Assembly: GCA_023301565.1 (NCBI GenBank)
Contig: JALZUO010000008.1
Span: 37,045-101,044 of the forward strand
Direction: 5' to 3'
Origin: Oligoflexales bacterium
GTDB taxonomy: Bacteria; Bdellovibrionota_B; Oligoflexia; Oligoflexales; JALZUQ01
DNA length: 64,000 bases
Position 1 is the stretch's first letter; every line of letters begins with the position of its first letter. The notes below the pieces were generated by a model, which saw only the letters and a program-made list of their open reading frames with translations, had not been told where the DNA came from and searched no databases. The translations under genes were made by a program, and so were the position numbers. Positions 3,001-22,465 of this stretch are shown piece by piece.

Positions 3001-3363
3001 CAGTAAGAGACTCACTCAATGGCGCGACGATAGTAGGTGCGCCTGGGATATTTAAAAAATCAAAAAAACTTGTGCTTGCACTCGTAGCTGAGTCTAGCAG
3101 TATGCCCGAGTTTGAAATTTGCAGGTTTCCCGAAGATCCCGGGGCTACATTTACTTCTACTTCAAAACCACCAGAGCTAGGGCAGTTGAGGGTTTCTGGC
3201 GAAATGCCTGCGGCAGAAATATAAACCTCTTCACCTGCATAACAGGTACCGCTTACTGTAGCTGAGCAAATGAGCGTTGGGCCTGATCTTCAAAAAAGTC
3301 AGAGTTACAACCAACGTTGGCTATAACCAAAAGACAGAACTATAATTTTGTGATTAGACGCAC
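1..3363 (-). pseudogene. Disrupted giant surface adhesin (tandem two-Cys Ig-like modules plus FN3 domains); 3' end runs off the window
   Basis: The minus strand carries about 7 tandem ~95-aa modules with two conserved Cys (VTCEAGMEVIVEN..HSCSGDG, SFNCEGDGEILILSS, KIECLDAANTILVEN, SFRCPEAGAVVSLSS, SFRCVAANQTVVVEN, VSCIASGTTLNLSG). These are followed by YE[LF]A[VI]G modules and a clear FN3 domain (LELGWTTPEDHGYEITDYAVEYKE...SGLKPSTSYDIRIKA, about 470-730). The reading frame is broken four times. The putative lipoprotein signal peptide from GTG 3363 (MRLITKL*FCLLVIANVGC) has an in-frame TAG at 3340-3342. Frame switches occur at 3253-3289, at 2462-2481 and at the T4/A4 run 1182-1185. The last segment is open to base 1. 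Confidence 0.6.
2466..2481. repeat. Tetranucleotide simple-sequence repeat (GAGT)4, which is (ACTC)4 on the coding strand
   Basis: The plus strand reads attag-gagt-gagt-gagt-gagt-ctag. The repeat spans exactly the overlap between the stop of adhesin frame segment 2462-3289 and the opening of segment 1090-2481. Confidence 0.9.
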
Positions 3364-3736
3364 TTACCCTACCCAAAAATTGCTTCCACTAGTATTCATC
3401 GGGGTATCAGTTATTTTCTTTACAAACTAAGAATATTTTTTTGCCCAGAGACTTTAAGCAAAATTACGGGCTGTTAGAGTTTTTGGTTATGCAGTTTGAG
3501 CTTGGATTTATACCGAACACAAGTAGTTATTGGGTATGGTTTTTGCGAAGTCACCTGTTTTAAGGGGGTTTATAGGCCTAGAAGAGTCAAAAAATATTAC
3601 TTACAAACTTTTCAGGCAGAACCCTAAAGTATTGATATTAAAATGTAAAAAGAAATATCCTTATCAATCCCAGAGACTTTACCTTCTGTTGCCGATTGAC
3701 GATGAGATTTCTAAATAAATACGATTAGAGGTTATC

Positions 3737-4603
3737 ATGCGAATTTGTATTTTCGGAGCTCTTGTAGCTTTTCTGACCTGTCTTCCAGGTTTGAATGCTC
3801 AAACAGGTATAAGGTCTGCTCCTACAGATATCTTAGACAATGCGTCGCGTAGAAACATAGAAAAAGATTGGCTGGATTTAGATTCCAGCGGCAACGCTCC
3901 ATCTCTGACGGTATCAGTACCAACAGGTTTTGCTGGAGATGGACTTTCAGCATACATCGGGATTTCTTTTGTCGACCGGGTTCGCTACAGCGATGTTTCC
4001 GACGGCGCTCTCACGCTAGGACTAAGCGGTGGAGACCCAGACAAGTACGTGGGTTTCAGTCTCGCTGCAACAGCTTATGATACCTATGGAAGTACATTTG
4101 GAAAATCCATTGGTTTCCATGCCGGAATTTCACGGATGTTGACAGGCTCAATTTCTTTATCGCTAGGTGCCAACAACATTGTTCTTTCGTCTGAAGCTGA
4201 AGCGTTTCAAATTCTCTCAGCCTACTTAGTTGCGACAAAGGTTTTAAAGCTTCGCGATAAAAGATGGTTTAGCTGGGCGAGCCTTACCCTTGGGGTAGGC
4301 AATGGTTCGTATAATAGTGAAAATACTACCAACCAAATTGTTCTTAACGAATTAAGTACACCGGGTGCAGATGAGAAAAATTGGGAAAACTATCGTGTTT
4401 TTGGTGGATTGTCGTTGGCGGTCCTTCCACGGCTTAACTTCATTGCAAACTGGACTGGTCAGGACTTAGATGCAGGCTTAAGTATAATTCCGTTTTCCAA
4501 GCTAGGAATCGTCGTTACAGGCGCTGCTTTAGATGTAACTGAAAATGCAGGAGATGGCATTCGGTGGGGTGGAAACATTGGCTACACCTATCAGATTAAA
4601 TAA
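3737..4603 (+). CDS. Secreted protein, probable outer-membrane beta-barrel (hypothetical)
   Basis: It has an N-terminal signal peptide (MRICIFGALVAFLTCLPGLNA|QTG), Gly/Ser/Leu-rich alternating segments and an aromatic-rich C-terminus (GGNIGYTYQIK). It is first in a tight 3-gene plus-strand set. Confidence 0.65.
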   Translation: MRICIFGALVAFLTCLPGLNAQTGIRSAPTDILDNASRRNIEKDWLDLDSSGNAPSLTVSVPTGFAGDGLSAYIGISFVDRVRYSDVSDGALTLGLSGGDPDKYVGFSLAATAYDTYGSTFGKSIGFHAGISRMLTGSISLSLGANNIVLSSEAEAFQILSAYLVATKVLKLRDKRWFSWASLTLGVGNGSYNSENTTNQIVLNELSTPGADEKNWENYRVFGGLSLAVLPRLNFIANWTGQDLDAGLSIIPFSKLGIVVTGAALDVTENAGDGIRWGGNIGYTYQIK

Positions 4604-4636
4604 ATACTGTTAAATGTACAGAAGGAAAGAATTTTT

Positions 4637-5395
4637 ATGAAATCGAAAAAGCAAATAAAACATCTACTTCTCTGGATGTCGGTATCAGTGTTTGGTTTTG
4701 CTTGCACTACATCAAACGAGGTTTCTCCTCCACCTTTTCAGGAGCTATCTGAATCCTACTTTAACAGTGGCCTGCTTTCAGCAGTAAGTAGCGAGCAAAT
4801 TACAGGTCCAAGTGAGCCGCAAACAATAAGGCTTGCTAAAAAAAGTGTAGTTGAAAAAAGCGCTGTTTCAAGCACTAAGCTAAGTGCTCTTGGTGTAGAG
4901 CATGCAAATTCAGGCTGCAACTGCGATACCGTAAAGGTTTGTCAGGGGCAAGACCTTCCAGCTGCATACGAAGGAGCGATTGCTGCGACTAGTGATATTG
5001 TGCCTCCCCGTGTTGGGTCAGACGGTGAAAATCGGTTTTATCACCTTCGTTCATGCGATGTATCACCTCAAGAGCTAGCTTTTTTTATCTGGGGCGATCG
5101 TTCTCGAGGACAAGAACTTGTTGAAAACGTTGGAGGAGCCTCCAAGTGGACTCCAGGTAGACTAATTCAGTATAAATCCCCGAGAAACACAAACCCAGGG
5201 TTACAAAGTTTTTATAGTGATCATCCAGGTACCACAAAGACTTACCGTGTTCAGCCCGGAGATAACCTAGCCTCCATAGCCGTCAAGGTCTATGGCGATC
5301 AGCGTAGCTGGAAAGAACTTGCTGTAGAAAACAATATCCGTCACCCAGACCATTTAAAAGTCGGTCAACTTCTCCAACTGAATTACAAGGAGTAA
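4637..5395 (+). CDS. Lipoprotein with C-terminal LysM peptidoglycan-binding domain
   Basis: The signal peptide carries a lipobox (SVFGFAC|TTS). The C-terminal YRVQPGDNLASIAVKVYGDQRSWKELAVENNIRHPDHLKVGQLLQL matches the LysM consensus. Confidence 0.75.
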   Translation: MKSKKQIKHLLLWMSVSVFGFACTTSNEVSPPPFQELSESYFNSGLLSAVSSEQITGPSEPQTIRLAKKSVVEKSAVSSTKLSALGVEHANSGCNCDTVKVCQGQDLPAAYEGAIAATSDIVPPRVGSDGENRFYHLRSCDVSPQELAFFIWGDRSRGQELVENVGGASKWTPGRLIQYKSPRNTNPGLQSFYSDHPGTTKTYRVQPGDNLASIAVKVYGDQRSWKELAVENNIRHPDHLKVGQLLQLNYKE

Positions 5396-5398
5396 AGA

Positions 5399-6115
5399 AT
5401 GAAGCTAAAGATAACAGATATTCTAAAAATGGTTGTTTTAGGCCTCTCGTTGCTGACGCCAGCAGCTGCATATTCATCTGAGTGTAATATCGGCGTTCAT
5501 GCCGGTGGAGCTACGCCTGGGACGTTTAGGTTTCATTTAAACCAAAAGCAAGAAGCGAGTACGGCGGACAGCGTCACATACTTTCTTCCGGTGGTAGAAT
5601 CACTTACTCATTCTGAGCGGACTTGCCCTTACGGGACATGTGCTTGTGGACATAAGCAAGAAGTTTCTGTTTCTGTTCGTTGGGTTCCAGTTGATCAGTA
5701 CTATTCGGCTGCTGAAAATTCCAGTGGAACCAGCGTTAGCCCACCTCCTATAGCACCAGATATGCTGCGTAAAAAAATGGGTTATTCGTTTGGCGCGGAA
5801 AAAGATCTTAATAACCTTAAGGTTCAACTTTCAAACGTGTTCAAACTTGGGGTTTCTAGGCCTGGAAGTGTACGAGTAGAAGCAACTAAAATATACGAAG
5901 GGCTTAAAAATTCTTTTAACAGCCCAGTGGTTGAAGTCCTATATCGCGGCCTTATTAGTGCAACGATAGGGTCGTCTAACAAAATGGATCAAGTGAAAAT
6001 CGCCTTTTCCAGATACACAGAAGTTATAGAAAACATGCCTACTAGCACGCTAGAGAGCAAACCTGCTGCTCTAGATGCGTTTAGGCAATACTTTTCCGCA
6101 GAGTTGAATAGATAA
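5399..6115 (+). CDS. Hypothetical secreted protein
   Basis: It has a signal peptide (VVLGLSLLTPAAAYS) and lies 3 nt after the LysM gene stop. No recognisable family motif. Confidence 0.6.
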   Translation: MKLKITDILKMVVLGLSLLTPAAAYSSECNIGVHAGGATPGTFRFHLNQKQEASTADSVTYFLPVVESLTHSERTCPYGTCACGHKQEVSVSVRWVPVDQYYSAAENSSGTSVSPPPIAPDMLRKKMGYSFGAEKDLNNLKVQLSNVFKLGVSRPGSVRVEATKIYEGLKNSFNSPVVEVLYRGLISATIGSSNKMDQVKIAFSRYTEVIENMPTSTLESKPAALDAFRQYFSAELNR

Positions 6116-7705: not shown

Positions 7706-8644
7706 TTAGTTGCTACTAGAAAAGCGAATACGGATTTGGGTTCCTATAAACGGCCTGCAAGGCTCCGGAAGAGGCGCGCTTGCAACGAGCGCACTTTCGA
7801 CGATTTGGTCAAAATAATCGTCTTCAGAGGTCTTCTCCATGGCTATTTTTTCAATAGATAAGTCTTGAGCTGGTGTGATCAGGTAGTCCACTGTTATTCG
7901 GTCGCCAAACTTATATTTCACAGGAAGCTGCTCGTCGATCATAGGCTTCACAAACTGTTTGATGAACTTAGTGCAAGGATCTTTTGCCTCTTCTCGTTGC
8001 ACGGCTAGCTGCTCTTGTTTGAGTTTTAACGCTTCTTCATCAATTTTATTTTGTTTGTCACTTTGAACCTTTAACTCTTTGGATTTTTTAACATCAGTAG
8101 ACTTACGCAGCTTCTCTAGAGCAAGCCTTTTTTTTAGTTCAGCTTTTTCAAGGGCGTTAGCCTCGAGGTCTTCTTTGGCGATAGGTTTTACGTCTTTTTT
8201 CTTTGCTTTTTTCTTTTCTTCCTTTTTTTCTGCATTCTTTTTGCTGTCTTTAGCTTTTTCTTTGGATTTTTCTTTCATCTTAATTTTCTTGGCAAGCTGC
8301 GGGAGCATGTTGCTCGGTATCGTAGCCTCTTTTGCAGTTTTTTGCTTTTTTATGGCGATCACTTTTTTAGGCTTTTCTTTGTCTGGTAGCGGATCGATCA
8401 AAAAATCACCCAAGTCTACATCTACTGCCTCAAAGCGTTTGACATCTATTTTGTGTATCTCTGGCTTACCATAAAAGACAAGTATATGAGCCAGGGTACT
8501 AACAACCAAAAAGCCAATCAGAAGTCTGTTTTCTTTGCGCCTACCCAGAGATGTATTCCGGACGCGTTCGGATCTTTTTTCAGCAAACCCGGCAGGTTTT
8601 TTATGTGCGTCTTTAGACGCTGTTACTTTGGGTGATTTTGTCAT
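7706..8644 (-). CDS. tolA: TolA-like (TonB-family) envelope-spanning protein
   Basis: It has an N-terminal TM anchor (LLIGFLVVSTLAHILVF), a long Lys/Glu/Ala-rich helical linker (KEKSKEKAKDSKKNAEKKEEKKKAKKK) and a small C-terminal globular domain. Its start overlaps the tolR stop by 4 nt. Confidence 0.75.
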   Translation of the reverse strand: MTKSPKVTASKDAHKKPAGFAEKRSERVRNTSLGRRKENRLLIGFLVVSTLAHILVFYGKPEIHKIDVKRFEAVDVDLGDFLIDPLPDKEKPKKVIAIKKQKTAKEATIPSNMLPQLAKKIKMKEKSKEKAKDSKKNAEKKEEKKKAKKKDVKPIAKEDLEANALEKAELKKRLALEKLRKSTDVKKSKELKVQSDKQNKIDEEALKLKQEQLAVQREEAKDPCTKFIKQFVKPMIDEQLPVKYKFGDRITVDYLITPAQDLSIEKIAMEKTSEDDYFDQIVESALVASAPLPEPCRPFIGTQIRIRFSSSN

Positions 8645-9909: not shown

Positions 9910-10058
9910 GGTGTCTCCAATCGCATCGTTTCAGGCGTATCACACGCTCCACTATACCCTTTTTTACAACAATGTGTTTTGAATTTTAAAATATTGATGC
10001 CGTCAGAAAGCTGTACTTAAACGATTAAAGTGCTAAAATTCTCGTAAGTACCAAGTTA
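9910..10058. promoter_or_regulatory. Divergent intergenic control region between tolQRAB and the lipoprotein operon
   Basis: This is a 149-bp AT-rich spacer between two head-to-head operons. It contains a TAAAAT -10-like hexamer at about 10034-10039, but no -35 can be assigned confidently. Confidence 0.35.
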
Positions 10059-10085
10059 GTGAAAACCCGTTTGCGGAGCCATCCT

Positions 10086-11837
10086 ATGAAGTTAGCTTTA
10101 ACCTTGAGTTTGTTGCTTGTCGCCGTAGCTTGCCGGCCACGCGCATCCGGCCTTAGTGAAGGAGGGGCAAACATAGAGAGTCTGTCAGGTGCGGAAGTTC
10201 GCTTTGTTTGTGATTTAGGTTTGCCGATTGCTTTTGGCGAGTTGAGAACAGACTACCGAGAAAAGAGTAGGCATATATTCTCTGTTCTCCCTATTAAAAA
10301 AAATGCTGCTAAAGAGCAGGAGCTTTTTGGCGTTAGCCCCAACAGTAAGGACTGTGGTTTTGGTATTCCAGAAAAACCCGTAAGTGCAGGTACTACTACG
10401 GCTGGTGTGACTGATTTTAGTTATGGGATTACAATTGGTGGGCGGATAAAACCAAAAGAAAAACCTGGTACACAAAAATCTAGTTCAAATATTATTCGAG
10501 CCTTTGAGCCCGCAAACCTTCCGCTTAAAACCGCCTATAAGCCGCTATCAGGTCTTGGGTTGCCGGCGAACTTGCCGTCCGGCCTGGGTTACAAAGTGGC
10601 AGGGCATACAAGCTTTCAAAGAGAGAGTATTGCGCTTTGGAATCAGTACGAAATAATTTGGAATCAAAAAAGGTTTAGCTCTCATGCTCCTATCGTGGAG
10701 GTTGAAGTCGTAGGTGGTTCTCTGCTTTTTTCGACAGGATCTCCTCCGACTCTTTACAGCATGAGGTATAACACTCATAAGGAGTTAAAGGGCAGTGGGC
10801 CGTTTGATTTAATCGCTAACGCCAAAAAGATCACAGGTGAAGTAAGGCGAAACAACGTTCGCATGCATGATTATAAAAACTTTACCTATGATTACTCAGA
10901 CGAGGTTGTTTACTTATCAAATCGAAACCTGCTTCTATATGACAAACTTACACACATAAATGGGAACCAAGACCCAAACCAAAAGTTTCCTCAAGGTGGT
11001 TATTTACGTAGCTTTGAAGTGGAGCAGTATGCGCAGGATAAATCCCTGTTTTTTACAATTAACACTCAAGATAAAATAGAAAAATCTAAGGGCAAGGTTT
11101 TTTGCACACCCATGCTTAATGATGGAGATATTATTTCATCCATGGACGTGATGAGGTTTAAGCATGGAAAGATGTGCTTGAATGTTTTAGGTGTAGGCTA
11201 TAGGCCAGAGGGGAGTAGCACTACTTTGTTTCGGCTGTTGTGGCAAAATCCCTATAAATATTATGGCACCGAACCTTGTGTCATATTGCCTTACCCCAAA
11301 AAAAATCCTCTGTATTGCTTAGAAGAGTTTAGAGGGAAGGGGTCAGAAAATGCATTTGTCGATCTTAGGGGGGTTTCTAAGGTTAGGTTTGCCCCGACGC
11401 AGCGCCATCAAAATTACAAAACACTGAGGATGCAGTTTGCTACTGTTGGTGAAGCTCCTAGCCGCATGGCAGCTGGTATCGAAAGCATGGATCTTCGTAT
11501 TAATGTTCACCGAAAAATTTTTTCGGACGTAAGCCAGCATATGAACACTCTCCTTTGGAGGGGGCCGTTTGTGGACAAAACAATTCATGTTGATTCTTTG
11601 ATTATCCGTAATGTAGGGCTAGATCAGCTAAAAGAGGTTGATATCTGGTGGTCTTCACCCAACATCCTTAATGTAAAGCTTCCTGATAACTCCATTTACA
11701 GTTGGGATGACAGGAATGTTTTGGAAGCGATTAGAGCCAAAAGTATAAATTCGAGTAAAGGGGACGCCAATTGCTCGAGCTGTGGTTTTCCACAAGGGGA
11801 GTTACAAGAAATGCTTCAACAAGAGGTGCCTAAATGA
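10086..11837 (+). CDS. Hypothetical Cys-rich lipoprotein (operon gene 1 of 5)
   Basis: ATG 10086 is preceded by GGAG (10075-10078); an alternative GTG lies at 10059. The lipobox reads LLLVAVAC|RPR. There are 9 Cys, including a C-terminal CSSCG, and no recognisable family motif. Confidence 0.7.
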   Translation: MKLALTLSLLLVAVACRPRASGLSEGGANIESLSGAEVRFVCDLGLPIAFGELRTDYREKSRHIFSVLPIKKNAAKEQELFGVSPNSKDCGFGIPEKPVSAGTTTAGVTDFSYGITIGGRIKPKEKPGTQKSSSNIIRAFEPANLPLKTAYKPLSGLGLPANLPSGLGYKVAGHTSFQRESIALWNQYEIIWNQKRFSSHAPIVEVEVVGGSLLFSTGSPPTLYSMRYNTHKELKGSGPFDLIANAKKITGEVRRNNVRMHDYKNFTYDYSDEVVYLSNRNLLLYDKLTHINGNQDPNQKFPQGGYLRSFEVEQYAQDKSLFFTINTQDKIEKSKGKVFCTPMLNDGDIISSMDVMRFKHGKMCLNVLGVGYRPEGSSTTLFRLLWQNPYKYYGTEPCVILPYPKKNPLYCLEEFRGKGSENAFVDLRGVSKVRFAPTQRHQNYKTLRMQFATVGEAPSRMAAGIESMDLRINVHRKIFSDVSQHMNTLLWRGPFVDKTIHVDSLIIRNVGLDQLKEVDIWWSSPNILNVKLPDNSIYSWDDRNVLEAIRAKSINSSKGDANCSSCGFPQGELQEMLQQEVPK

Positions 11838-13972
11838 GGTTGACAGTGATAAGAAATCTGCCGCTACTAGTGATAGCAGCTGTGCTTTTGGCTACGGCGT
11901 GTAAACAAAGAAGCCGCTTGAGCTCAGATCAACTTGAAAATGAAGCCCGGTATGACGCGCCGTATAGCGAAGAGCTCTTTACTGTCTATCCATTTGCATA
12001 TAATGAACACTTTTTGATGAACATCGCAGATACTAGTACTTGGCTGCACTATGTTTTAGGCGACAGGCAAGATTTAGCTCAAAGAGAAGATTTTCAGGAA
12101 GTTTTTGGTGCTTTGGGAGAAAGCAGGGGGCTGTGGGACAACGGAAGAGAACAGTTTCGGTTTTTGATGCGTAGTGGAGCAAATGCCCTGCAAGAAGTTG
12201 TAGCTTACGACTTCTATATAAAGTTTAAGTACAGCGGGCCGGACGAACGCTCTAAATTTTTGTTTCAATACCCGCTGCATTACAGGCTTCTCCCGCAATA
12301 CGCCCCGAATGCTTCGCGTTTTTTTCAGGTTTTGATTTCCGCAGGTTATTACAACCAAACGAGAGATAAGTTAAGTGCGCAGAAGTGTATTCGAAAGACT
12401 GCAAACCAGTTTGCGCTTGGCGAAATGAACTTTAGCCCAACTGCTCGACCTCCTGAACTAGACTGCTACAAAACAGACCCGCAATGTTGCCTTGTGCCAG
12501 AAGTTAACGAAAAAGGTATACCTCAGCCGCTCCCGCTAAACATGAACAAACTCCCCCTAAAAAGCTGGGGTTTAGACCATGCAACAGAAGAGGTCCCTTT
12601 CCACCTTTTTCGAGCTACCCTTTCGACCTCTACCAGAGAGCTAGACTGGCGTACCCCCTTTCAAATGCAGTGCAGGTTTCAAGATCGGTTCGACGTACCA
12701 CTTAAAGAAGTTTCTGTAGGCGCACCATCTTCTTTTCGCCAGCTGGAAAGCAACCTGACAGCAAAAGAGAAAAAGCGTGAACGTCAAAAAGAAATCATTC
12801 AAGAACAAATTAATGGCATCAAAAAACAGATGGTAGACGTAGAAAAAAGCAGAAAAAAGCCAAACGAAGAGGGTGCAGAAGTTCATAATGCAAATATAGA
12901 AAAATTTATAAAGGAGTCTCGGGTTAGGTTGCTCCGGCTTGAAAGGTTTCTTGAAGCAGATTCAGCAGAAGAGCTTCTGGCAATACAAAGAGAAGAGGCA
13001 TTTGAAGAAGGTAAAGGGGTAAAACCGGTCCACTCTGCTGATTCTCCAAACCCTGGTTCCATCTGTTCAAAAAACCAAGGTTCAAACGTTTGGCCAGAGA
13101 AAATATGTGGTGGGTCTCCCGCACTTGTTGGTTTTGGTGGGCTTCAGAAGGAAACCCGTGTTGTCACTATGCCAACACACGACTACGTCACTCCGGACCT
13201 ATCAAGGCTAAAAAATGAAAGGTATTTTCTTAAGGCATTGGATTTGATGCTACCAACCGACATGTCCATGTCAGCCGGGAGTATTCCGGCAAAGCATTTT
13301 AGTCAGATTCGCGTTTTATTCGAAGGTGAACATAACAGCGGGGCCCAAAATCAGGGTGGGGGTACTGGACAAGAAGGTGGCCAGTCAGTCGGTGCGGCCC
13401 CTGCAGAGTCGGATGTTTTGAACAAGGACGGGCGTTACCGTATGTCTGGAAGCGAGCATATCTCCTTTCTTGGCGCGGAAAGAGTGGAAGAAATAAAAGG
13501 TTTTGTAGACCAAAAGCTTCAGTTAGAGGCAAAAGCAAAACAACAAAGCCAGCAAGCGGCAAAGTCTAAAGCACCGGCTAAAAAAACAAGCTTTATGATA
13601 GAAGAACTAAAAAAACAGGCACAAGAGCGTGTGCGTGACCAAGAACGAATGCGGCTTGCTGTTCGGCCCGACGGGTTTGTCATCAACCCCTACGAAAACG
13701 AAGCTGAGTATTTTTGCAATTTCTCCCAGTACCCTCCAGCTCCTTTTGCACGGTTTCAAGGTTTGGTCGGAGCTTCGAATAATATCAGCAAGGGCCACAT
13801 CCTAGAAGCTTTAGCCAAAGCACTAGCTGCGACAAGTCTAGATCCAGCAAGTAGCAATATTTTAAGCATTGAAAAAATTGACTGGCTTCGTAGGCCTCCT
13901 TGCACAAACGGAGTATGCACTGGTGAAGTTCTATATAGTTTGATGCCAACATTTAACCCAGAAAGAAAATAA
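11834..13972 (+). CDS. Hypothetical Cys-rich lipoprotein with central coiled-coil/Lys-Glu-rich segment (operon gene 2 of 5)
   Basis: An ATGA start/stop overlap links it to gene 1. The lipobox reads VLLATAC|KQR. It has a charged helical stretch (KEKKRERQKEIIQEQINGIKKQMVDVEKSRKK), a Gly/Gln low-complexity patch and paired Cys (DPQCCL, CTNGVC). Confidence 0.7.
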   Translation: MRLTVIRNLPLLVIAAVLLATACKQRSRLSSDQLENEARYDAPYSEELFTVYPFAYNEHFLMNIADTSTWLHYVLGDRQDLAQREDFQEVFGALGESRGLWDNGREQFRFLMRSGANALQEVVAYDFYIKFKYSGPDERSKFLFQYPLHYRLLPQYAPNASRFFQVLISAGYYNQTRDKLSAQKCIRKTANQFALGEMNFSPTARPPELDCYKTDPQCCLVPEVNEKGIPQPLPLNMNKLPLKSWGLDHATEEVPFHLFRATLSTSTRELDWRTPFQMQCRFQDRFDVPLKEVSVGAPSSFRQLESNLTAKEKKRERQKEIIQEQINGIKKQMVDVEKSRKKPNEEGAEVHNANIEKFIKESRVRLLRLERFLEADSAEELLAIQREEAFEEGKGVKPVHSADSPNPGSICSKNQGSNVWPEKICGGSPALVGFGGLQKETRVVTMPTHDYVTPDLSRLKNERYFLKALDLMLPTDMSMSAGSIPAKHFSQIRVLFEGEHNSGAQNQGGGTGQEGGQSVGAAPAESDVLNKDGRYRMSGSEHISFLGAERVEEIKGFVDQKLQLEAKAKQQSQQAAKSKAPAKKTSFMIEELKKQAQERVRDQERMRLAVRPDGFVINPYENEAEYFCNFSQYPPAPFARFQGLVGASNNISKGHILEALAKALAATSLDPASSNILSIEKIDWLRRPPCTNGVCTGEVLYSLMPTFNPERK

Positions 13973-16900
13973 ATGAGCTACTTAAAACTAAGAGTTAAGC
14001 GTTGGGTAATTGCGGTTTTTGTCGTTTCTTGCATAACGCAGTCCTGCAAGCCTAGGTATAGTTATTTGCAAGGCGAGGATTCACGTTTGAGTGGATTCGT
14101 GAAACGACAAGCAGATATATCGCTTATATATAAAGCGTTTCGCACGGCTCCTCATATTTTTGTACCCCCACCTTCGATTGCTCAGCAAAGAGATAAAAAC
14201 AACAAGTTCCTAAAAGTCTATCAGTCGTTTTTAGAGGCAAACCCCGAGGCGCAAGGGGACTACGAAGCTGAAAACCAGCTCCGTAGGCAGATTGAAGAGA
14301 AGTTCGGGACAGCGAGGACGCCGGTTGAAGAAATTTTTGATTACTCTTTTGACGAAGGTTATCCGGAGCTACGCTCTTATGCAGCTGCAACTGCTTTTGA
14401 GCTTTTGATTCGCAGTGATCCTACGGCTACGCATATAGGTTTTCAAAACAAAGACTACACACCGAGTCAGTTCTTAAATGTTTTACTTGGTCAGGTAATC
14501 AAGCCTTGGAATCCTAGGATCAAAGAAGTCCGTCAGGACGGAGATCAAAAAGGTAAAAAGCCAGGCGGAGACCTTATATGTGGCTACCCTTGGGAGTGCC
14601 TAAAAAAAGTAGAACATTTGGTAAGTCTCTCGCATGTTCTTAATGCAAGGCATCACAAGCTTAGTGAAAGCATAAAGCTAATTTTTGATGAGCTAGCTAG
14701 AATTGCTCTGCTTCCTTCAGAATCTGGCTCTGAGTTTGACAGGGCCGATCAAGTCAGCGTTATGAATGCGCTTGTTTTTTACCAAGCAAAACTGGGAAAA
14801 GCTTATGCAGAGTTTGCGACGCAGACGGGTTATTTTTTGGGTACCCCTATCAATTTTTCCTCTCTTTACTTCAGTCAAATTAAAAAAGGTAGGCAAAACT
14901 TTGCGATTAAAGAAAAAAGGAAGGTACTGGAAATAGTTCGTAATATGGAGAAAAGATTCTTTACTACGTTCTCCTACCGCGGCACAAAGTACATTACCCC
15001 TTATGAGGTTGATATCAATAGGTTTCGAAGAGAGATGCTTATGGAAATGGCTCATTCGGACCCTAGATTTGCTGATTTAGCCGACGACTCCTACTTTTTG
15101 AACCTTGCGTCTGTCGATGGAAAAACAAAGGTTGTTTCTGATATTGACGTGATCGAAAAACAGCGTAAAGACGAATCTCAATTTCTTGACGAAGCTATGA
15201 TGATGCTCAACTCGAACCTGAAGATGGTTGGCAGTGTTATACGGAACACGGGTAAAAGTTCGCGGCGAATTCTGATGCTTTTGGACCGCATGCAGCAAAA
15301 GTCTCCTAGAAGGCATATTGCTTGTAGTGTTGAGCTGAGTCGTGACTATTACCGGCAGGTATCAGAAAGATACATCATTCCAGGGGTGCAAGGAAAGTCC
15401 GCCCCCAAAATTCTAGCCCCTTTGGAAATTGGCTTTTCTAAGACCGTGACACACGGCAATGGTAGCTATACCTGTCTCAATAGGCCACTTCTGCCAGCCC
15501 AAGGCATCAAAAGTTTAATGCCTAATGAAGATGCGGTTCGTCGAGAGGCGTATGGGCCGTTCCGCTTAAAATATAAAACTGCTTTGCAAACCCTTGTTGG
15601 GTTAGATGCGAACCTGATACGCATAGCCCCAGACAACAAAGGCAAGAGCCGGAATTTTTCGCCTTATGCAGGGCTAGTGAAGGTTTTTGATGTCCTTGCC
15701 TCTAGCGCCTTCGATACGAATCGAAGTTTAGCTGTGGATTTGGGTTTAGATCCAGCCGTTCTCGGGCAACAGTACGAACAGCGTCTTTATGAGAGTATGC
15801 GTGGTTTTACTGGCTGGAGTGACACCTTGCTCAAAATGGCAAATGAGATGCAGCATCGAGACAGAAACACCAAGCTTTGGATGAGTTTACTCGAGCAAGA
15901 TGTCGAGTTCTTAAAAGAAGATGGCGCGATGCCCAAGGACGAAAAACTGGCACAAATGTTTGATTCTGAGTGGGAATACGCAGTGTTTAAAGGCCAGGCT
16001 AAAGGAGAGTATGAAAGGTGGGTTCAGGAAAAAGGAGGCGCGGTATCTGGTGGTGCGGTTTGGTCTTCTTATACCAAGCTTTATAGGGCGATGGTCGGAA
16101 CCACCAACGAAGAAGACAAGAAGGTCTTTAAAAGTATTGAAGATAAAAGGCGAAATATCGCTGAAGGGCACCGTTTTCCCAAAGAAGCCGATACTCCTAA
16201 GGAGAGAGAAGATATTAGAGCTTCTCTTCTGCAGGAAACCTGGGCTTTAACTGGTGGAACTGCCAAGAAAATTTGGACTTATATGTTTAACGGTCATGGC
16301 ACAAAAAACGCTTGGCAACACAACCTAGATAGGGAAACAGCTCTATCCTTAAAGCCCAAGCTGCAAATGGCGTGCTTAGAATATCGCGCGCTTGCAGGCA
16401 CGCCACAACAAAAACAATACTTCTATTCACAATCGGAACAGCAAAAGTGGAATCAGGAATCTAGTTTTTCGAAAAACTTTTTGGGGTGTCAGTCGTACGC
16501 TCTAAACTGGAGTATTCCCTCCATGTACAATGATATCCAAAAGTTTGACTACGGCAAGAAGTTGCTTACTAATTTGGCTAGCGATGATTTAAGCCCATTT
16601 TCACATGAGGGCTATGAACGAGCCAAAGATGGAAAGTTTGATCTTAGGGTGATGTGTGGAGAAACAACCAAAGCATATGATGAGGTAATGTCCTTGGACC
16701 TGCACCTAGATCAGATGCTCATCGCCCACAATAAAGATTCGCGCTGCAGAGGGTCCACTAACCAGATAGTCACGACTGTAATTTCTCTGTCAGTTATGGG
16801 GCCTCTTTTTAAGGTTGCTGGTTCAGTCTCAGGTTTTTTAACGCCTAACTTAGGTCGGATACCATTGATGGGTCCTTTGATGACGCCTATGATCAATACC

Positions 16901-18529
16901 GTAACCAAGAGATACCGAACAATGGTCAGTCACCTGGTTCGGGGAAAAAAACTTAGTATCAAAGGAGCAGAGGGCTGGTATAACCTCAATCCGTTTTCTA
17001 GCCGTAATCTTCGCGGGGTGTTGGACGACACTGCAACAGCTGTTTTTAATGTGACAACTAGGGGCAAAACCCGTGGCCAGTTTGCTGCTGCGTGGAAAAG
17101 GTTAGGTACGATGCCTTTTTGGGCTGTTTTGCATGTTTGCGCCACCCGCGGCTCCTATGCTGCAATCAACGGGGCGATTACGGGTACGGTTTTTTTCTTA
17201 GTAAATAAAGTCGTGATGGCACCCTTGGTCGGGGGCTTGATCCAGCAGTTGCCAGGAGAAACCGTCATGGGTGCTATTTGGCGGACCAAGTGGAGTCTTG
17301 CGATAGAGTATGGTCAAGGTGTGAGTTATGCCATGCTCGGTCCGATTGGTGATGGTCCGGCTATTTGGACGAATAAAATGGGCCTTGGAATGGCTTATCG
17401 CGGTATTCAGTGGGGGCGTGGGTTTGTCAGAAGACGTGCCCCGGGTTTACCTAAATACATACCGTTTAAGGATTTCAGATCTAGGTTTTATAACTATTCA
17501 AAAGGACTTGCAGGAACAAGTCAGATTGCGCTGGAAGAAGCTTGGTTTTTTATTCCCGATATTGCCATTATGGAGACTTTTTACTTTTTACAGTGGTGGG
17601 ATACCGGAGAGCCGGCGGTCCGAGAAACCTTTGGCGCCTTCGTGACGCAAAATGCCTTTGCTCTTTATATGATTCGCGGAAAGCAAGCGCGAGCTCTTGG
17701 GGCGCAAGCTATATGGGAAACAAAGATAGAAGTGTCGGCTATCAAGTCATTTAGAGAGCTGCGCAAATTTGCCAACACAAGGAGAACCATTAGGGTTGCA
17801 GGTAGCGAGCTCAACTTTGGGCAAGGGAACGTACGTGACTTGCTTGCAGATGTCGGAATTTTACATTCGGGCGATATTAGCTTTGATGAGTTTTACCGGC
17901 TAGTTCGACGCGGCGTGGACAGAACAGAGCGCTATATGGATCAGCGGACGTTAGATGAGTTTTACCAGCAGATTGAGCAAATGAGTGATGGTATTGAAGC
18001 AGAGCGAGCCGTGACAGAGTGGACTCACATGACTCACCTGCGAAACGTGGCACTACAAATAGATGCCATCACAAGAGACAAGGAAACCTTTCGCCGCAAT
18101 ATCTGGCCGGAATACATCCAAGCTAGAAGGACCCAAGGGGTCCGGGCTGTAAATAACTATGCTCAGGCCTTTGCTGCAGCAGACGGTAAGCTTGTCTCGG
18201 CCGAGGTAGACCTTAGTGCGGATCCGTTGAAGGCTATATTTGGCAAGGGGCGCGAGGTGTTCTTTACCTCTTCTATGAATAACCCGCAGATTAAAGAGCA
18301 GCTTGAAAAAATGCGAGATGAACTCGAACACCGGAAACAAAAAGCTCAAAGTACAGGTAACAGTAATCTTGAAAAGCATATAGATGATGCATTGGCGTTA
18401 TATATGGATCCTTTTCATAGCCGAAACCAGATTCAACTAGCTAGAGGCTTACAGCCTTTTGGGGTCCGGCGAATGCATGAGCAGCGCACAGCGCAGGTTC
18501 GGTCATGGCAGCCATTTGATGAGTTTTAG
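13973..18529 (+). CDS. Hypothetical 1518-aa envelope protein: N-terminal signal/lipobox, ~900-aa soluble region, hydrophobic multi-helix block, ~330-aa C-terminal domain (operon gene 3 of 5)
   Basis: The ATG immediately follows the gene 2 TAA. The N-terminus reads WVIAVFVVSCITQSC. Hydrophobic segments fall at roughly aa 915-1200 (VTTVISLSVMGPLFKVAGSV, FWAVLHVCATRGSYAAINGAITGTVFFLV, AWFFIPDIAIMETFYFLQWW). The ORF is intact over 4.5 kb. Confidence 0.75.
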   Translation: MSYLKLRVKRWVIAVFVVSCITQSCKPRYSYLQGEDSRLSGFVKRQADISLIYKAFRTAPHIFVPPPSIAQQRDKNNKFLKVYQSFLEANPEAQGDYEAENQLRRQIEEKFGTARTPVEEIFDYSFDEGYPELRSYAAATAFELLIRSDPTATHIGFQNKDYTPSQFLNVLLGQVIKPWNPRIKEVRQDGDQKGKKPGGDLICGYPWECLKKVEHLVSLSHVLNARHHKLSESIKLIFDELARIALLPSESGSEFDRADQVSVMNALVFYQAKLGKAYAEFATQTGYFLGTPINFSSLYFSQIKKGRQNFAIKEKRKVLEIVRNMEKRFFTTFSYRGTKYITPYEVDINRFRREMLMEMAHSDPRFADLADDSYFLNLASVDGKTKVVSDIDVIEKQRKDESQFLDEAMMMLNSNLKMVGSVIRNTGKSSRRILMLLDRMQQKSPRRHIACSVELSRDYYRQVSERYIIPGVQGKSAPKILAPLEIGFSKTVTHGNGSYTCLNRPLLPAQGIKSLMPNEDAVRREAYGPFRLKYKTALQTLVGLDANLIRIAPDNKGKSRNFSPYAGLVKVFDVLASSAFDTNRSLAVDLGLDPAVLGQQYEQRLYESMRGFTGWSDTLLKMANEMQHRDRNTKLWMSLLEQDVEFLKEDGAMPKDEKLAQMFDSEWEYAVFKGQAKGEYERWVQEKGGAVSGGAVWSSYTKLYRAMVGTTNEEDKKVFKSIEDKRRNIAEGHRFPKEADTPKEREDIRASLLQETWALTGGTAKKIWTYMFNGHGTKNAWQHNLDRETALSLKPKLQMACLEYRALAGTPQQKQYFYSQSEQQKWNQESSFSKNFLGCQSYALNWSIPSMYNDIQKFDYGKKLLTNLASDDLSPFSHEGYERAKDGKFDLRVMCGETTKAYDEVMSLDLHLDQMLIAHNKDSRCRGSTNQIVTTVISLSVMGPLFKVAGSVSGFLTPNLGRIPLMGPLMTPMINTVTKRYRTMVSHLVRGKKLSIKGAEGWYNLNPFSSRNLRGVLDDTATAVFNVTTRGKTRGQFAAAWKRLGTMPFWAVLHVCATRGSYAAINGAITGTVFFLVNKVVMAPLVGGLIQQLPGETVMGAIWRTKWSLAIEYGQGVSYAMLGPIGDGPAIWTNKMGLGMAYRGIQWGRGFVRRRAPGLPKYIPFKDFRSRFYNYSKGLAGTSQIALEEAWFFIPDIAIMETFYFLQWWDTGEPAVRETFGAFVTQNAFALYMIRGKQARALGAQAIWETKIEVSAIKSFRELRKFANTRRTIRVAGSELNFGQGNVRDLLADVGILHSGDISFDEFYRLVRRGVDRTERYMDQRTLDEFYQQIEQMSDGIEAERAVTEWTHMTHLRNVALQIDAITRDKETFRRNIWPEYIQARRTQGVRAVNNYAQAFAAADGKLVSAEVDLSADPLKAIFGKGREVFFTSSMNNPQIKEQLEKMRDELEHRKQKAQSTGNSNLEKHIDDALALYMDPFHSRNQIQLARGLQPFGVRRMHEQRTAQVRSWQPFDEF

Positions 18530-18600: not shown

Positions 18601-19797
18601 GTGCGAGCAAATATACTTTTAGCTGGATTGATGTTGGTGCTGATGGCCTCATATGGGTGTAGATCTGTAGGTGATAATAGCTCCCTTTTAGGTAAAGGCG
18701 GCATTGGCAACTTGCATGGTTGTGAAATAGTGAACCAGACCTGCGTAGGGAAATGTCCGTACGACCTTCAAAGGACTGCTGCTGATCTTCCAAAACTTCA
18801 CCCGCCTTTACTGGCCGTACTAGGTACCCGTCTTGTATCAGGTAGTAAATCAGACAATGCTGTAAAAACTTTTTTAGAAAAAGCTGGAATTTCTGAGTGG
18901 TCAGATGTTTATAGCAAGAAGTATATAGATGCCTTTAGTGGAAAATCTCCAAACGGAGATGGTGCAGAGGGCTTTAGATTAGCTCTAGCTGAGGATACAA
19001 AAAAGGTATTGGCAGGTATTCCAGCCGACCAACGTGCCGATTTTGTAATGCGAACTGCCACCACTATTGCTGCTTTGATTACAGACGGTCAAACGCACGA
19101 TGTAAAAGGGTTGCTTGCACAAGGGCTTATGGAAGCAGACATAAAAAACTTAGTTTCTGGAATCAATACACCTGAAATGAAAATAGCTTTAAAAACACTT
19201 GAAGCAGCAAAAGAATCCACGAAGCTAGCATTGTCTGGTAATTTTGATGCAATGGATCAAATGCAGCGGATTTTAAAAAGTCTTGGAGATGAAGCAAAGC
19301 GCACTACCTTTGCAGGAGCCAATGGCGATGCTTTCAAAACGACTGCCTATGAAACTGCATCAGTCTTAGCAGCTGATCTAGAGGCTATTGAGCGTGTTCG
19401 GTTGGGTCAGCCAAACCAAATTATGCCTCCTGAAATAGCAAGCTTGGTCGGTGAAAATGGTCATGCTGAAGGCGTTGTACATGCTTCAGCTCTTAAGTTG
19501 TGGTTCAACGGTAAAGCTCCAGGTGCAAACCAACGGGGTGGTGAAATTACACGTGGAGCATCTAATGTAATGGTTGCAACCGGTAAAAATATGGATGCCG
19601 ACGCAAGTTATGCACAGGCTGCAGAGAGACTACCTAGGGGTTTTGGCGCTGCTTTGGTAGATTCCGCAGATGCGACAACTAGGGTAAGAGCTTTAAGTCA
19701 AAGAGCAAAATCAAGGGACATTCTGCAATCGGCCGCTAGAAAAAAATCTGCAGCTGGCACTGCGGCTAGAAATTTTTCTGCGAAGACTGCTCTTTAA
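18601..19797 (+). CDS. Hypothetical lipoprotein, Ala-rich helical (operon gene 4 of 5)
   Basis: It has a GTG start with a strong SD. The lipobox reads LVLMASYGC|RSV. A Cys cluster (CEIVNQTCVGKC) lies near the N-terminus, and there is no recognisable family motif. Confidence 0.7.
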   Translation: MRANILLAGLMLVLMASYGCRSVGDNSSLLGKGGIGNLHGCEIVNQTCVGKCPYDLQRTAADLPKLHPPLLAVLGTRLVSGSKSDNAVKTFLEKAGISEWSDVYSKKYIDAFSGKSPNGDGAEGFRLALAEDTKKVLAGIPADQRADFVMRTATTIAALITDGQTHDVKGLLAQGLMEADIKNLVSGINTPEMKIALKTLEAAKESTKLALSGNFDAMDQMQRILKSLGDEAKRTTFAGANGDAFKTTAYETASVLAADLEAIERVRLGQPNQIMPPEIASLVGENGHAEGVVHASALKLWFNGKAPGANQRGGEITRGASNVMVATGKNMDADASYAQAAERLPRGFGAALVDSADATTRVRALSQRAKSRDILQSAARKKSAAGTAARNFSAKTAL

Positions 19798-19800
19798 GGT

Positions 19801-21363
19801 ATGAATCATAAAAATGTGAAGAGTCTGTTTTTTTTATTCTTCGCCTTTGTATTGGTAGGCTGCAAATCTCCAAATAGCAATATTTTGGGTGGTTCGCAGC
19901 CTTCTGATTTTACGGTAAACCCTTTTAAGCTGCGGCAAGCGGACACAAACTCACTTCACAGTTTTTCTATCCCAAAAAAGATCTTGGCCATTGGAACTCG
20001 GTTGAGTGATCTTAGTTTTTACCGTCTCGGTCGGGATGACCAGTCCCTTTCTATGTCTATTTTTGATAGCCAGCCAACTTTAGCTCCACCGCCCACAAAC
20101 CCTGATTTTGGGAAGCTTTTGAGGAAGGCTCAAAAGCCAGGAGCTCGCGTAGATGCGCTCATAACTTCCTTGGACTTTAGTCATGACGGAAACGTGTTGG
20201 CTGTTGGTACAGAGTCTGGCGTACATTTGTACGAGTTTTTATATGATCAAAACGGCGAAATTCTAGATATTTGCGAAGAGAGTGTCGATAACTTTCTGCC
20301 TGGTCAACCGATAGAATCGGTCCGTTTTACTGGTCACGACCTAAAAGCAAAAAAGTTGCTTTATAGGCTGGTTTCACAAACGAAACCAGGCATTTTGCAT
20401 ATCTCGGTAATTTTACCTAGGGTAGCGCGAAACGAAGATGGCAGTACTATCCCCGCTAAAGTGTGTTCAGCTCGTGCGGGCAGTGGAAACCTAGCAGACG
20501 ATGCTACCTATATTCATACAGTGCCAATGCTAAAATTGCTGCCTGCAATCGGCCAAACTGAATTACATGCAAAAAACTGGATTGGACTACAGTTTAACTC
20601 AGTTGGTAAATATATAAATGAAGCTTTTAATTATCCGTCTAAAATGCTTCGAGTAGAAGGGCCTTTTATAGAGACTAAAAAATCTATTCTGAGCCCCTAT
20701 ATAGCAGGCTACTCAATGCAATATGTTTATTTGATTAGATTCGCAGATGGCACAACACGGTATCTCTATGAAGCTCCAAACCACAAAGCTCTGCAAGGTT
20801 GGAACCTGGTCTACGACAAGTCCAAGCCACATATTAAAGAGGTATATTCATTTAGCTCGAATAAAACTCGAATGATGCTCAGTTACTTGGGTAATAGGGT
20901 ATTTGTAAGTGAATTTAGTTCTTATGGTGAAGAGTACTTTTATGATGCGACCAAGGTTAATATTGGCGAAGAAAAAGCAAACGAGCTTTACAATACTATT
21001 TACACGAGCAAGCAAAAGGCCTTGATGCGCCGGGTTAAAAAATTAGGTGTACGTTTTTTTACACCCAGTAATTCCAAGTTTTGGGTGACTTCGTCTTATC
21101 CAGACAGAACCAAAAACCTTTTTTGGTTGTTTTCGCCAAAACACAATATAATCACGGTTTATTTGACTCCATGGCACCTGCACCCAATTCAAGAGGGCTC
21201 AAAGAATAACCGGGTTTTGTTTTCAAAAGACCCAGCTCTTAGAGGTTGGATTCCAGATACAGAGCAGGTTTGGCCAATAGACCACGAACGGCTTCTTTCA
21301 CGTCACCCTGATGGAACGCTTTACTGCCTTGACTTTAAGAAGGCTAGCTGTGGACCGCTTTAG
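19801..21363 (+). CDS. Hypothetical lipoprotein, possible beta-propeller-like (operon gene 5 of 5)
   Basis: It starts 3 nt after the gene 4 stop. The lipobox reads FAFVLVGC|KSP. One WD40-like strand motif is present (DFSHDGNVLAVGTESGVHLYEF); otherwise there are no family motifs. Confidence 0.7.
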   Translation: MNHKNVKSLFFLFFAFVLVGCKSPNSNILGGSQPSDFTVNPFKLRQADTNSLHSFSIPKKILAIGTRLSDLSFYRLGRDDQSLSMSIFDSQPTLAPPPTNPDFGKLLRKAQKPGARVDALITSLDFSHDGNVLAVGTESGVHLYEFLYDQNGEILDICEESVDNFLPGQPIESVRFTGHDLKAKKLLYRLVSQTKPGILHISVILPRVARNEDGSTIPAKVCSARAGSGNLADDATYIHTVPMLKLLPAIGQTELHAKNWIGLQFNSVGKYINEAFNYPSKMLRVEGPFIETKKSILSPYIAGYSMQYVYLIRFADGTTRYLYEAPNHKALQGWNLVYDKSKPHIKEVYSFSSNKTRMMLSYLGNRVFVSEFSSYGEEYFYDATKVNIGEEKANELYNTIYTSKQKALMRRVKKLGVRFFTPSNSKFWVTSSYPDRTKNLFWLFSPKHNIITVYLTPWHLHPIQEGSKNNRVLFSKDPALRGWIPDTEQVWPIDHERLLSRHPDGTLYCLDFKKASCGPL

Positions 21364-21463: not shown

Positions 21464-22465
21464 ATGCAATTTTTTTCCGTTCTATGTCTTACTGTTCTTT
21501 TTGTTTTGCCTAGCGCATTTTTAAGCTCAGCTTCTGCCGAGCCCCTCTACCGCATCAAAGGAAAAACCGTTACAGGAGTGACGCTTAACCCTGTAAAGCA
21601 GTCAGTCTTTAATCAGCTAAAGGTTAATTACTACGAGGCTAAACTTAGGTTTGCCAAAGATCAGGTTCTAGAAGCTTACTACGACAAACTTGCTGCCAAA
21701 GAAGGTAAAACAAGGCTAGAGGTTGAAAAAGAGCTTTTGCATGTAAAAAAACTTAACCAAGAAGAACTCAAAGAGTTTTATAACAATAATAAAGAAAATA
21801 TCCCTTACCCTTACTTTTTAGTCAAAGATAAGCTGGCGGATTACTACAAAGGGTTTGCCAAAGAAGATCTTCGAGAAAAGGTTTTTAAAAAAGCCAGAAA
21901 AAGCCTAAACGCTAAGATTTTGTTACCTAAGCCCGTTGCCGGGACAATAGCTATCGACACTTCTTTGTACGCAAAAAAAAGCTCTGACAAGGCCAGGCAC
22001 ACATTGATTAAGGTGGGTGACTATCAATGTCCATACTGTAAATCGGCACATAAACTGCTGCCAGGCATTTTAGAAAAGCTCGGTAAAAAGGTTGAGTTTG
22101 TCTATGTGGACTTCTTCAACCCATCCTCAAGAGGCGGTAAGGCCGTAGCAGAGGTCGCCTACTGTATTCGAAAACATAAAAGTGACTCCGCATATTGGGC
22201 TTACCATGACCACGCCTATAAAAATCAAATGATGATGTTTTCTACCTCTGCCGGCAGGCGTTTTGCTGAAGAGACTAAAAACTGGGATACAAAAGTTGAA
22301 AAGTGCTACACAAGCAAGGAGGGCACAAAGTTTGTAAATGCATCGCATGAATTTGCAAAAGATTTGGGAGTGACAGAAACCCCCACCTTTTTTCTCGATG
22401 GGAAAAAGATGAAGCTACCAGCGACTGAAAAGCTTGCGGTCAAAAAAATCCGCAAGCTTATGTGA
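21464..22465 (+). CDS. DsbA-family thiol:disulfide oxidoreductase with N-terminal helical extension
   Basis: It has a signal peptide and the thioredoxin-fold active site GDYQCPYCKSAH (CPYC). The C-terminal TPTFFLDGKK is typical of DsbA-like proteins. Confidence 0.8.
   Translation: MQFFSVLCLTVLFVLPSAFLSSASAEPLYRIKGKTVTGVTLNPVKQSVFNQLKVNYYEAKLRFAKDQVLEAYYDKLAAKEGKTRLEVEKELLHVKKLNQEELKEFYNNNKENIPYPYFLVKDKLADYYKGFAKEDLREKVFKKARKSLNAKILLPKPVAGTIAIDTSLYAKKSSDKARHTLIKVGDYQCPYCKSAHKLLPGILEKLGKKVEFVYVDFFNPSSRGGKAVAEVAYCIRKHKSDSAYWAYHDHAYKNQMMMFSTSAGRRFAEETKNWDTKVEKCYTSKEGTKFVNASHEFAKDLGVTETPTFFLDGKKMKLPATEKLAVKKIRKLM

Follow-up and report, generated by a model that had tools for sequence, protein, structure and literature searches.

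Latent hydrophobic regions are known from the pore-forming domains of colicins, the T domain of diphtheria toxin and the delivery domain of large clostridial toxins. Operon-encoded surface lipoproteins are known from the Bacteroidota, where SusD/E/F-like proteins carry a lipoprotein export signal. Here we describe gene C, an open reading frame (ORF) in a 64,000-nucleotide (nt) stretch of Oligoflexales DNA (contig JALZUO010000008.1, positions 37,045 to 101,044; the whole stretch is called the window below), together with the cluster of five genes, A to E, in which it lies. By its sequence the gene C protein classes as a bacterial lipoprotein. The searches reported below place its domains in no family described so far, and the module of five genes, with a C-K-x-R motif apparently private to it, is undescribed in the databases searched. 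We propose that gene C may encode the conserved core subunit of an undescribed envelope module that would consist of five co-translated lipoproteins, A to E, all of them extracytoplasmic.

Gene C and its family

Gene C (13973..18529, + strand) starts with ATG and is the longest ORF of the window, as the original prediction had stated: it has 1518 amino acids (aa), the runners-up 962 and 902 aa. The ATG is the most upstream start possible and is aligned with the N-termini of both homologues described below. We take gene C to be genuine, since 1518 open codons at 44% guanine + cytosine (GC) are beyond chance and two distant homologues exist. Residues 1-25 (13973..14047, +), which read MSYLKLRVKR-WVIAVFVVSCIT-QSC, form a predicted signal peptide with the lipobox MSYLKLRVKRWVIAVFVVSCITQSC and an invariant cysteine, Cys25, at its end. 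Within them, residues 11-25 (WVIAVFVVSCITQSC) are preceded by a K/R-rich n-region and satisfy the lipobox rule, ending in Cys25; a PROSITE PS51257-type pattern is matched at the same residue. The lipobox Cys is aligned in the three family members (Cys25 in the window, Cys27 and Cys19 in the homologues) and is followed by K-P-R in each, which makes Cys25-K-P-R invariant (n = 3). The lipoprotein-type N-terminus that had been noticed earlier is therefore well founded. Cys20 was considered as the lipidation site and rejected, since it is not conserved in the family whereas Cys25 is invariant. From the sequence we infer the lipidation of the protein, and likewise its location, disulfides and function.

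To find relatives, residues 319-1518 of gene C were compared by phmmer, exhaustively, with 1.84 billion representative proteins clustered at 50% identity. The scan returned two proteins, P0008 (1277 aa, E 6.7e-28) and P0009 (1485 aa, E 9.4e-5), and for both the best-matching stretch lay within a hydrophobic block in the C-terminal half. Full-length alignment of the three C proteins indicated end-to-end homology at 21-26% identity (pairs as low as ~20%). Divided by part, identity was highest in the block (25-34%), with 20-24% for the N region and 18-25% for the tail. The question raised at the outset, whether the hydrophobic block is the conserved part, can thus be answered with yes, both by identity (25-34% versus 18-25% in the flanks) and by the best HMMER stretch. 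All three proteins are singletons in clusters and are labelled "hypothetical protein" or carry no label.

A word-indexed search of 5.8 billion clusters with gene C found gene C itself only (a cluster of one), and word-indexed searches with a three-sequence profile and with P0009 each found the query's own cluster only. This type of search missed links that phmmer finds at E 7e-28 and 9e-5, and its negatives at 20-26% identity are not readable as absence. No further relatives were detected in GTDB representative genomes, JGI metagenome contigs (two scans), viral contigs, plasmids and phages (tblastn), and the other sequences used in this analysis contain no additional copy. Three family members, found in a library standing for about 15 billion proteins, are a lower bound: the contig scans failed to recover the JGI contig that carries the locus of P0008, called L082 here.

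Scans of the three C proteins and of the operon partners with Pfam, NCBIfam, PADLOC and PHROGs matched no family consistently, and PDB sequence and profile searches with gene C gave no match. Clear homology to a known transporter or toxin family, which the original prediction had named as counter-evidence, was looked for in these databases and not found. At E ≤ 10, Pfam-A reported a single match for the three proteins, to COQ7 (E 0.11, one member), which was counted as chance. A match to AgaE, of the mannose-family IID components of the phosphotransferase system, was likewise set aside as chance or compositional; it scored 19.8 bits against a cutoff of 500 and was seen with the window protein only, the homologues being without it. 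Not one His is invariant in the three-sequence alignment, and HExxH and GxSxG are both missing, which makes an enzymatic role of gene C unlikely. Internal repeats were looked for in gene C and none were found.

The protein falls into three parts. The grand average of hydropathy (GRAVY) is -0.59 in the N region, +0.15 in the block (residues 930-1235) and -0.70 in the tail. This profile recurs in both homologues, with block values of +0.15 to +0.25 across the family and tail values of -0.83 and -1.01 in the homologues. The architecture originally proposed (signal/lipobox, a soluble region of ~900 aa, a hydrophobic block and a tail) was borne out and is conserved in both homologues. Judged by GRAVY and by conservation of its Cys columns, the N region (residues 26-929; 14048..16759, +) is hydrophilic and contains eight aligned Cys; its conserved motifs include ECLKK.EHL and CLNRPL. 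AlphaFold2 (AF2) models of both gene C halves, built from three-row alignments, are all-helical with a predicted local distance difference test (pLDDT) score of 37.0 and 35.7. The N region is probably all-helical, the sole source of this assignment being the low-confidence AF2 model.

The block (16760..17677, +), delimited by hydrophobicity and alignment, is semi-hydrophobic, Gly-rich (11.5%) and cationic, with a net charge of +19 in gene C and of +8 and +14 in the homologues. It comprises five segments, H1 (932-950), H2 (1046-1066), H3 (1068-1090), H4 (1186-1209) and H5 (1219-1235). The hydrophobic stretches that had been reported within residues ~915-1200 are present and map to 933-952, 1049-1090, 1190-1209 and 1220-1234. 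Between the segments lie cationic amphipathic helices (hydrophobic moment 0.53-0.58, net charge +4), and the motifs RG..(V/I)N(G/S)(A/V)(I/M).G, (G/I)QG(V/A), (L/I)GP..DG....N, EEA and GE(P/T)...E are conserved in the block. By GRAVY and Cys count, the tail (residues 1236-1518 and the stop codon; 17678..18529, +) is very hydrophilic, Arg-rich and Cys-free, and it is probably helical. Cys is absent from the tails of all three family members, and a motif, K.QLE, is conserved at residues 1441-1445. The tail stretch LLADVGILHSGDISFDEFYRLVRRGV (window 17840-17935, residues ~1290-1320; P0009 counterpart LYHSIGYDPKTGTPNKEDALKAYRRHV) bears, by eye, a faint resemblance to J-domain/PG_binding_1 helices; no Pfam model reports a match.

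Compartment and hydrophobicity

In each protein the mature N region has eight Cys that group into four local pairs (in gene C 203/209, 451/501, 801/839 and 895/925). Although the proteins are only ~22% identical, seven of these columns do not vary, and the eighth is off by 13 columns in one member. Since aligned local pairs are a signature of consecutive disulfides and of an oxidising compartment, this pattern agrees with the DsbA-like gene next to the cluster, and the N region probably forms four consecutive disulfides. The C-terminal half presents the opposite picture: block and tail together contain 1, 0 and 0 Cys in 589, 505 and 536 aa. In the window, cytoplasmic enzymes contain 0.8-1.5% Cys and the periplasmic TolB none; at the cytoplasmic frequency, about five Cys would be expected in block and tail of each protein. 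This depletion favours an exported location of the C-terminal half and disfavours a cytoplasmic tail.

To calibrate the hydrophobicity of the block, we summed the Hessa scale, which is crude, over 19-residue windows and used proteins encoded in the same stretch of DNA as reference. Transmembrane (TM) helices of TolQ, TolR and TatC gave sums of -4.3 to +3.5, and the window proteins in which TM helices are obvious all had a minimum of +2.3 or lower. The minimum of gene C was +4.6 (residues 1072-1090), residues 932-950 gave +5.3, and the corresponding segments of the homologues ranged from +5.7 to +8.4. Gene C heads a continuum of proteins in which this scale shows nothing of TM grade beyond the N-terminal 45 residues (+5.1, +5.1, +5.2, +5.4 and upwards); these include an ATPase-like protein (41650-43269), and gene C is threefold longer than they are. 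The range of the segments of gene C and its homologues overlaps that of buried helices of soluble enzymes. On the Kyte-Doolittle (KD) scale, two 19-residue windows of gene C just reach 1.6 (H1 1.61, H3 1.88), and windows at or above this value number 2, 1 and 0 in gene C and the two homologues. The segments, described earlier as long and hydrophobic, are thus only moderately hydrophobic.

Charged residues are present in all three proteins in four of the five segments (H1, H2, H4 and H5). K947 in H1 and R1059 in H2 are invariant; H4 carries four to five Asp/Glu in every family member, with E1188, E1189 and D1196 invariant; and H5 has one K/R per member. On balance the sequence evidence speaks against a classical polytopic TM domain. 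The polytopic membrane block of the original prediction therefore found no support, given Hessa sums outside the TM range, a signal that fades in the homologues, conserved charges and few Cys.

The five-gene cluster and its surroundings

The order A to E is kept in all three loci at which C proteins are found. The cluster of L082 (6706-16770) encodes products of 638, 466, 1277, 358 and 560 aa, that of L084, the locus of P0009 (5986-17900), products of 492, 714, 1485, 412 and 682 aa, and the gene junctions at both loci are as tight as in the window. The flanks are unrelated: genes of an insertion sequence (IS), TnpB and a resolvase at L082, and LemA, DUF3137 and MetRS genes at L084. Because the flanks differ among the loci, it is the five-gene unit that is conserved and not the tol neighbourhood found in the window. 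Sequence conservation across the loci is robust for C, weak for B and marginal for D, while A and E do no better than shuffled controls. As the sole member conserved robustly at the three loci, gene C can reasonably be regarded as the likely core of the operon, a role already suggested for it. A search for paralogy among the A-E products found none, and no ATPase, beta-barrel or cytoplasmic component is encoded in the operon at any of the three loci.

All 15 A-E products of the three loci have a signal-like hydrophobic stretch followed by a small residue and Cys, and the five window products all satisfy the lipobox rule. In each of the 15, the residue immediately after the lipobox Cys is K or R, and 12 of them carry the longer form C-[KR]-x-R. 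Four nearby lipoprotein candidates encoded outside the operon have T, A, G or N at this position and none has K/R. The post-Cys basic motif may, on this sequence evidence, be an operon-private sorting or recognition motif. In Myxococcus xanthus, Lys at position +2 is tied to inner-membrane lipoproteins, on the strength of 8 of 12 identified proteins and one reporter experiment (Bhat et al. 2011, PMC3222651). By analogy, the shared basic residue may keep the five proteins together in a single membrane. The motif may represent a sorting code for Bdellovibrionota lipoproteins.

In the window the cluster is preceded by a candidate sigma-70-like promoter (9963..9992, +), located between the divergent genes tolQ and A, which are 150 bp apart; it agrees with the consensus at 10 of 12 positions, and the number of such sites in the region equals the shuffle expectation. 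Gene A (10059..11837, +; 592 aa) encodes a lipoprotein-like product by the lipobox rule (LLLVAVAC-RPR) with no Pfam, NCBIfam, PADLOC or PDB match. The genes at its position in L082 and L084 are of comparable size and their products have a C-K-V-R N-terminus; homology is undetectable. The last 4 nt of gene A, at its stop codon, are also the first 4 nt of gene B. Gene B (11834..13972, +; 712 aa) is lipoprotein-like by the same rule (LLATAC-KQR), and its stop codon (TAA) directly abuts the ATG of gene C. Homology of gene B across the loci is weak: in a 21-sequence database, the B products of L082 and L084 match at E 1e-5 and those of the window and L082 at E 0.015. The B products have a common C-terminal motif, V.PFN..(I/F)N....(D/N)E.(E/D)(F/Y). 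Gene D (18601..19797, +; 398 aa, lipoprotein-like, LMASYGC-RSV) has a strong AAGGAGG ribosome-binding site on its 5' side and no family or PDB match. Gene E (19801..21363, +; 520 aa, lipoprotein-like, FVLVGC-KSP) has no meaningful family or PDB match. PDB searches with the A, B, D and E products gave no match.

The gaps between C and D, D and E, and E and the following gene F are 71, 3 and 100 nt. Gene F (21464..22465, +; 333 aa) encodes a predicted exported DsbA-like thiol:disulfide oxidoreductase with CPYC at residue 189 (Thioredoxin_4 2.3e-19, DSBA 3.7e-8; type-I signal peptide). It is part of the window version of the cluster only, being absent from the L082 and L084 loci. The gene F product also has an N-terminal extension of ~170 aa.

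The window derives from one of seven metagenomes of bull-kelp (Nereocystis) blades, ERZ23499574 / SAMN23429950 of PRJNA783443 (PMC9238374). Two highly divergent copies of the cluster come from this one metagenome, the window as scaffold_10 and L084 as ERZ23499574 scaffold_7, and the C proteins of the two are about 21% identical. GC content is 44.4% in the window, 36.4% in L084 and 42.1% in L082 (JGI sample). Three binned Oligoflexales metagenome-assembled genomes (MAGs) of the kelp-blade study have GC contents of 43.9, 37.1 and 41.2% (PMC9238374), and the values of the window and L084 agree with two different ones of these. Judging by GC content and best hits, all three cluster-bearing marine genomes are probably Oligoflexales (Bdellovibrionota), and this assignment would explain the scarcity of relatives of the cluster. 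TolQ, TolR and TolB of the window are only 32-47% identical to any GTDB representative, the best being Oligoflexia, Bdellovibrionales and Bacteriovoracaceae MAGs. Immediately 5' of the L082 cluster, positions 1973-5956 of that locus hold genes for TnpB (Cas12f-like), an IS3-type transposase, a resolvase and a nucleotidyltransferase; the cluster there may lie inside a variable or mobile region.

The upstream neighbours of gene A, divergently oriented, are tolQ-tolR-tolA-tolB, and on the 3' side the cluster is followed by an EVE-domain gene, citrate synthase and polA. An accessory role in Tol-Pal was rejected, since the adjacency is not conserved and since 80 tolQ neighbourhoods from other genomes contain no relative of any operon protein. 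The product of the TolA-like ORF (7706-8644, - strand) is 312 aa long, with a membrane anchor at its N-terminus and a TonB_2 domain at its C-terminus; the public annotation of the contig retains a 98-aa C-terminal piece of it only, which produces an apparent gap between tolR and tolA. Elsewhere in the window, two Cys-rich ORFs (2.2-2.3% Cys) without a family match lie at 1090-3019 (-), and the overlapping ORF pairs 35223-35864/35755-36879 and 53638-54387/54345-55154 (+) may be mis-started or frameshifted genes. An Rfam scan of the window gave no match.

Possible function and known systems

The reading that we tentatively prefer, while giving it somewhat under an even chance, is that gene C encodes a helical scaffold, tethered by lipid and stabilised by disulfides, for a complex of envelope lipoproteins located wholly outside the cytoplasm, with the block as an interfacial or core domain. 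Sec would export the protein, and the invariant Cys25 would receive the lipid. It would then be tethered to the membrane with its four partners, and by analogy with M. xanthus the K/R after the Cys (mostly K-x-R) may retain all of them in the inner membrane. The ~900-aa helical N region would be locked by four consecutive disulfides, a step for which the window genome has a DsbA-like gene next to the cluster. The block would fold compactly, as a hydrophobic-core or interfacial domain resting on the bilayer, dipping into it or docking the partner lipoproteins. Because no residue pattern typical of enzymes is conserved, the role in the cell envelope seems most likely to be structural or one of scaffolding.

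Several points weigh against this scaffold. Scaffolding is the default that follows from missing enzymatic signatures in an alignment of three sequences, and the AF2 models are unusable as structure (pLDDT 36-37, three-sequence alignments). The Lys+2 rule comes from another phylum, in which it is only a correlation (8 of 12 proteins). Across the loci, A, D and E show no detectable homology, so that conservation of the five-gene unit rests on order, size and the N-terminal motif. Finally, two segments of gene C attain the classical KD threshold of 1.6, and the distribution of K/R around the five segments fits a five-helix topology with the N-terminus outside and the C-terminus inside (N-out/C-in), a fit that rests on K/R-rich stretches of 56-103 aa, where the positive-inside rule is weak, in a block that is cationic as a whole.

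The last two points lead to a different protein, a true inner-membrane hub, which was the second option of the original prediction. In it Cys25 would be lipidated or replaced in function by a signal anchor, the N region would be periplasmic, H1-H5 would span the membrane N-out/C-in, some of them as marginally hydrophobic helices, and the Arg-rich tail would be cytoplasmic, so that periplasmic lipoprotein partners would be linked to the cytoplasm. The KD values of H1 and H3 (1.61 and 1.88) are in its favour, as are a strongly hydrophilic, Arg-rich tail and the charges: the stretches after H1 and H3 are K/R-rich (13-15 K/R versus 3-4 D/E) and the H4-H5 loop is acidic, a pattern that fits the positive-inside rule for N-out/C-in in all three proteins. 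Against this, no segment comes within the range of TolQ, TolR and TatC, the homologues lying at +5.7 to +8.4, and the fall of KD ≥ 1.6 windows from 2 to 1 to 0 means that the signal is not conserved. H4 has its four to five acidic residues in every member, while H2, H3 and H5 contain K/R/E/N/Q. Block and tail have 1, 0 and 0 Cys where about five are expected at the cytoplasmic frequency, and the invariant lipobox Cys makes an uncleaved N-terminal anchor unlikely. We consider such a hub improbable. An outer-membrane or surface assembly of lipoproteins, such as an adhesin or coat on the kelp blade, with K-x-R as a surface-export signal and the block as the buried core of a large helical ectodomain, strikes us as quite doubtful as well. 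It would suit a habitat on a host surface, an N region predicted to be disulfide-rich, a post-Cys motif confined to operon members and the very fast divergence of A, D and E, which is expected of surface-exposed proteins. Lipoprotein export signals of the Bacteroidota resemble the post-Cys motif in logic only. No Slam-, SusC- or BamA-like translocon is found in or beside the cluster at any locus, Lys+2 in Myxococcus is an inner-membrane signal, and solvent-exposed ectodomains do not usually contain a 300-aa stretch with positive GRAVY and a net charge of +8 to +19.

The membrane-inserting or pore-forming module of the original prediction has gained no positive evidence, and it survives as an unlikely reading in the following form. 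The protein would be exported in soluble, lipid-tethered form with the block folded away until a trigger (contact, pH or proteolysis); the hairpins 1046-1090 and 1186-1235 would then insert into the membrane of a prey, a competitor or the host alga as a pore or translocation conduit, and A, B, D and E would serve as delivery or receptor-binding partners. Intermediate hydrophobicity (GRAVY +0.15 to +0.25; Hessa +4.6, +5.3) would permit passage through Sec and later partition into lipid. The block, the most conserved part of the family, has a Gly-rich hydrophobic stretch of ~42 aa and a second helix-loop-helix with a conserved acidic tip, (D/V)(T/F)GE(P/T). The remaining operon genes diverge extremely fast, and the probable lineage, Bdellovibrionota, includes predators, although Oligoflexales are not established predators. 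Other features are hard to reconcile with such a toxin. Pfam has models for the translocation domains of colicins, large clostridial toxins and diphtheria toxin, and at E ≤ 10 it reported nothing for the three C proteins beyond one chance match. None of the three loci has an immunity-like small membrane gene, the intergenic gaps being 0-100 nt, and no secretion system or release mechanism lies nearby. The lipid anchor and the possible inner-membrane retention residue speak against delivery, and the ~280-aa hydrophilic tail after the block is unlike colicins. That the block is a new latent pore or translocation module on a lipid-anchored giant, with four C-K-x-R-marked partner lipoproteins deployed alongside, seems to us a long shot; if it were so, marine Oligoflexales would possess a contact-dependent weapon or an apparatus for host interaction that was not known before.

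The evidence does not point to a new mechanism; what is new is the protein family. If the scaffold reading is true, the cluster would be a self-contained envelope module of five lipoproteins for which searches of Pfam, NCBIfam, PADLOC, PHROGs and PDB detect no relative, and the conserved semi-hydrophobic domain may represent a new fold for interaction with membranes. For now the family is an orphan, as are many from poorly sampled phyla. The lineage has almost no experimental biology, and the cluster is a lead and not a discovery.

Compared with colicins, the diphtheria toxin T domain and large clostridial toxins, gene C likewise encodes a big hydrophilic protein, predicted to be exported, with an internal, conserved, moderately hydrophobic helical region, and a putative helical hairpin of its block has an acidic tip. 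The sequence pattern of hydrophobic hairpin and amphipathic helix in the block is suggestive, but the AF2 model, with a pLDDT of 37, is unusable. Unlike those toxins, gene C is without a Pfam or PDB match, has a lipoprotein anchor and no immunity gene, contains no recognisable receptor-binding or enzymatic cargo domain and continues after the block in a long hydrophilic tail. With the SusD/E/F-like sets of the Bacteroidota, the cluster shares several co-operonic lipoproteins with a common short post-Cys motif of the sorting type; its motif is, however, basic and not acidic, it has no TonB-dependent barrel partner, there is no homology and the lineage is another. Tol-Pal is also an envelope system and tolQ adjoins gene A, but the two systems are not homologous and the adjacency is missing at the L082 and L084 loci. 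The Lys+2 lipoproteins of M. xanthus belong to a different phylum and are without sequence similarity to the cluster proteins. They share with them a basic residue right after the lipidated Cys, seen here in 15 of 15 products, which in the cluster is mostly extended to C-K-x-R and apparently specific to one operon.

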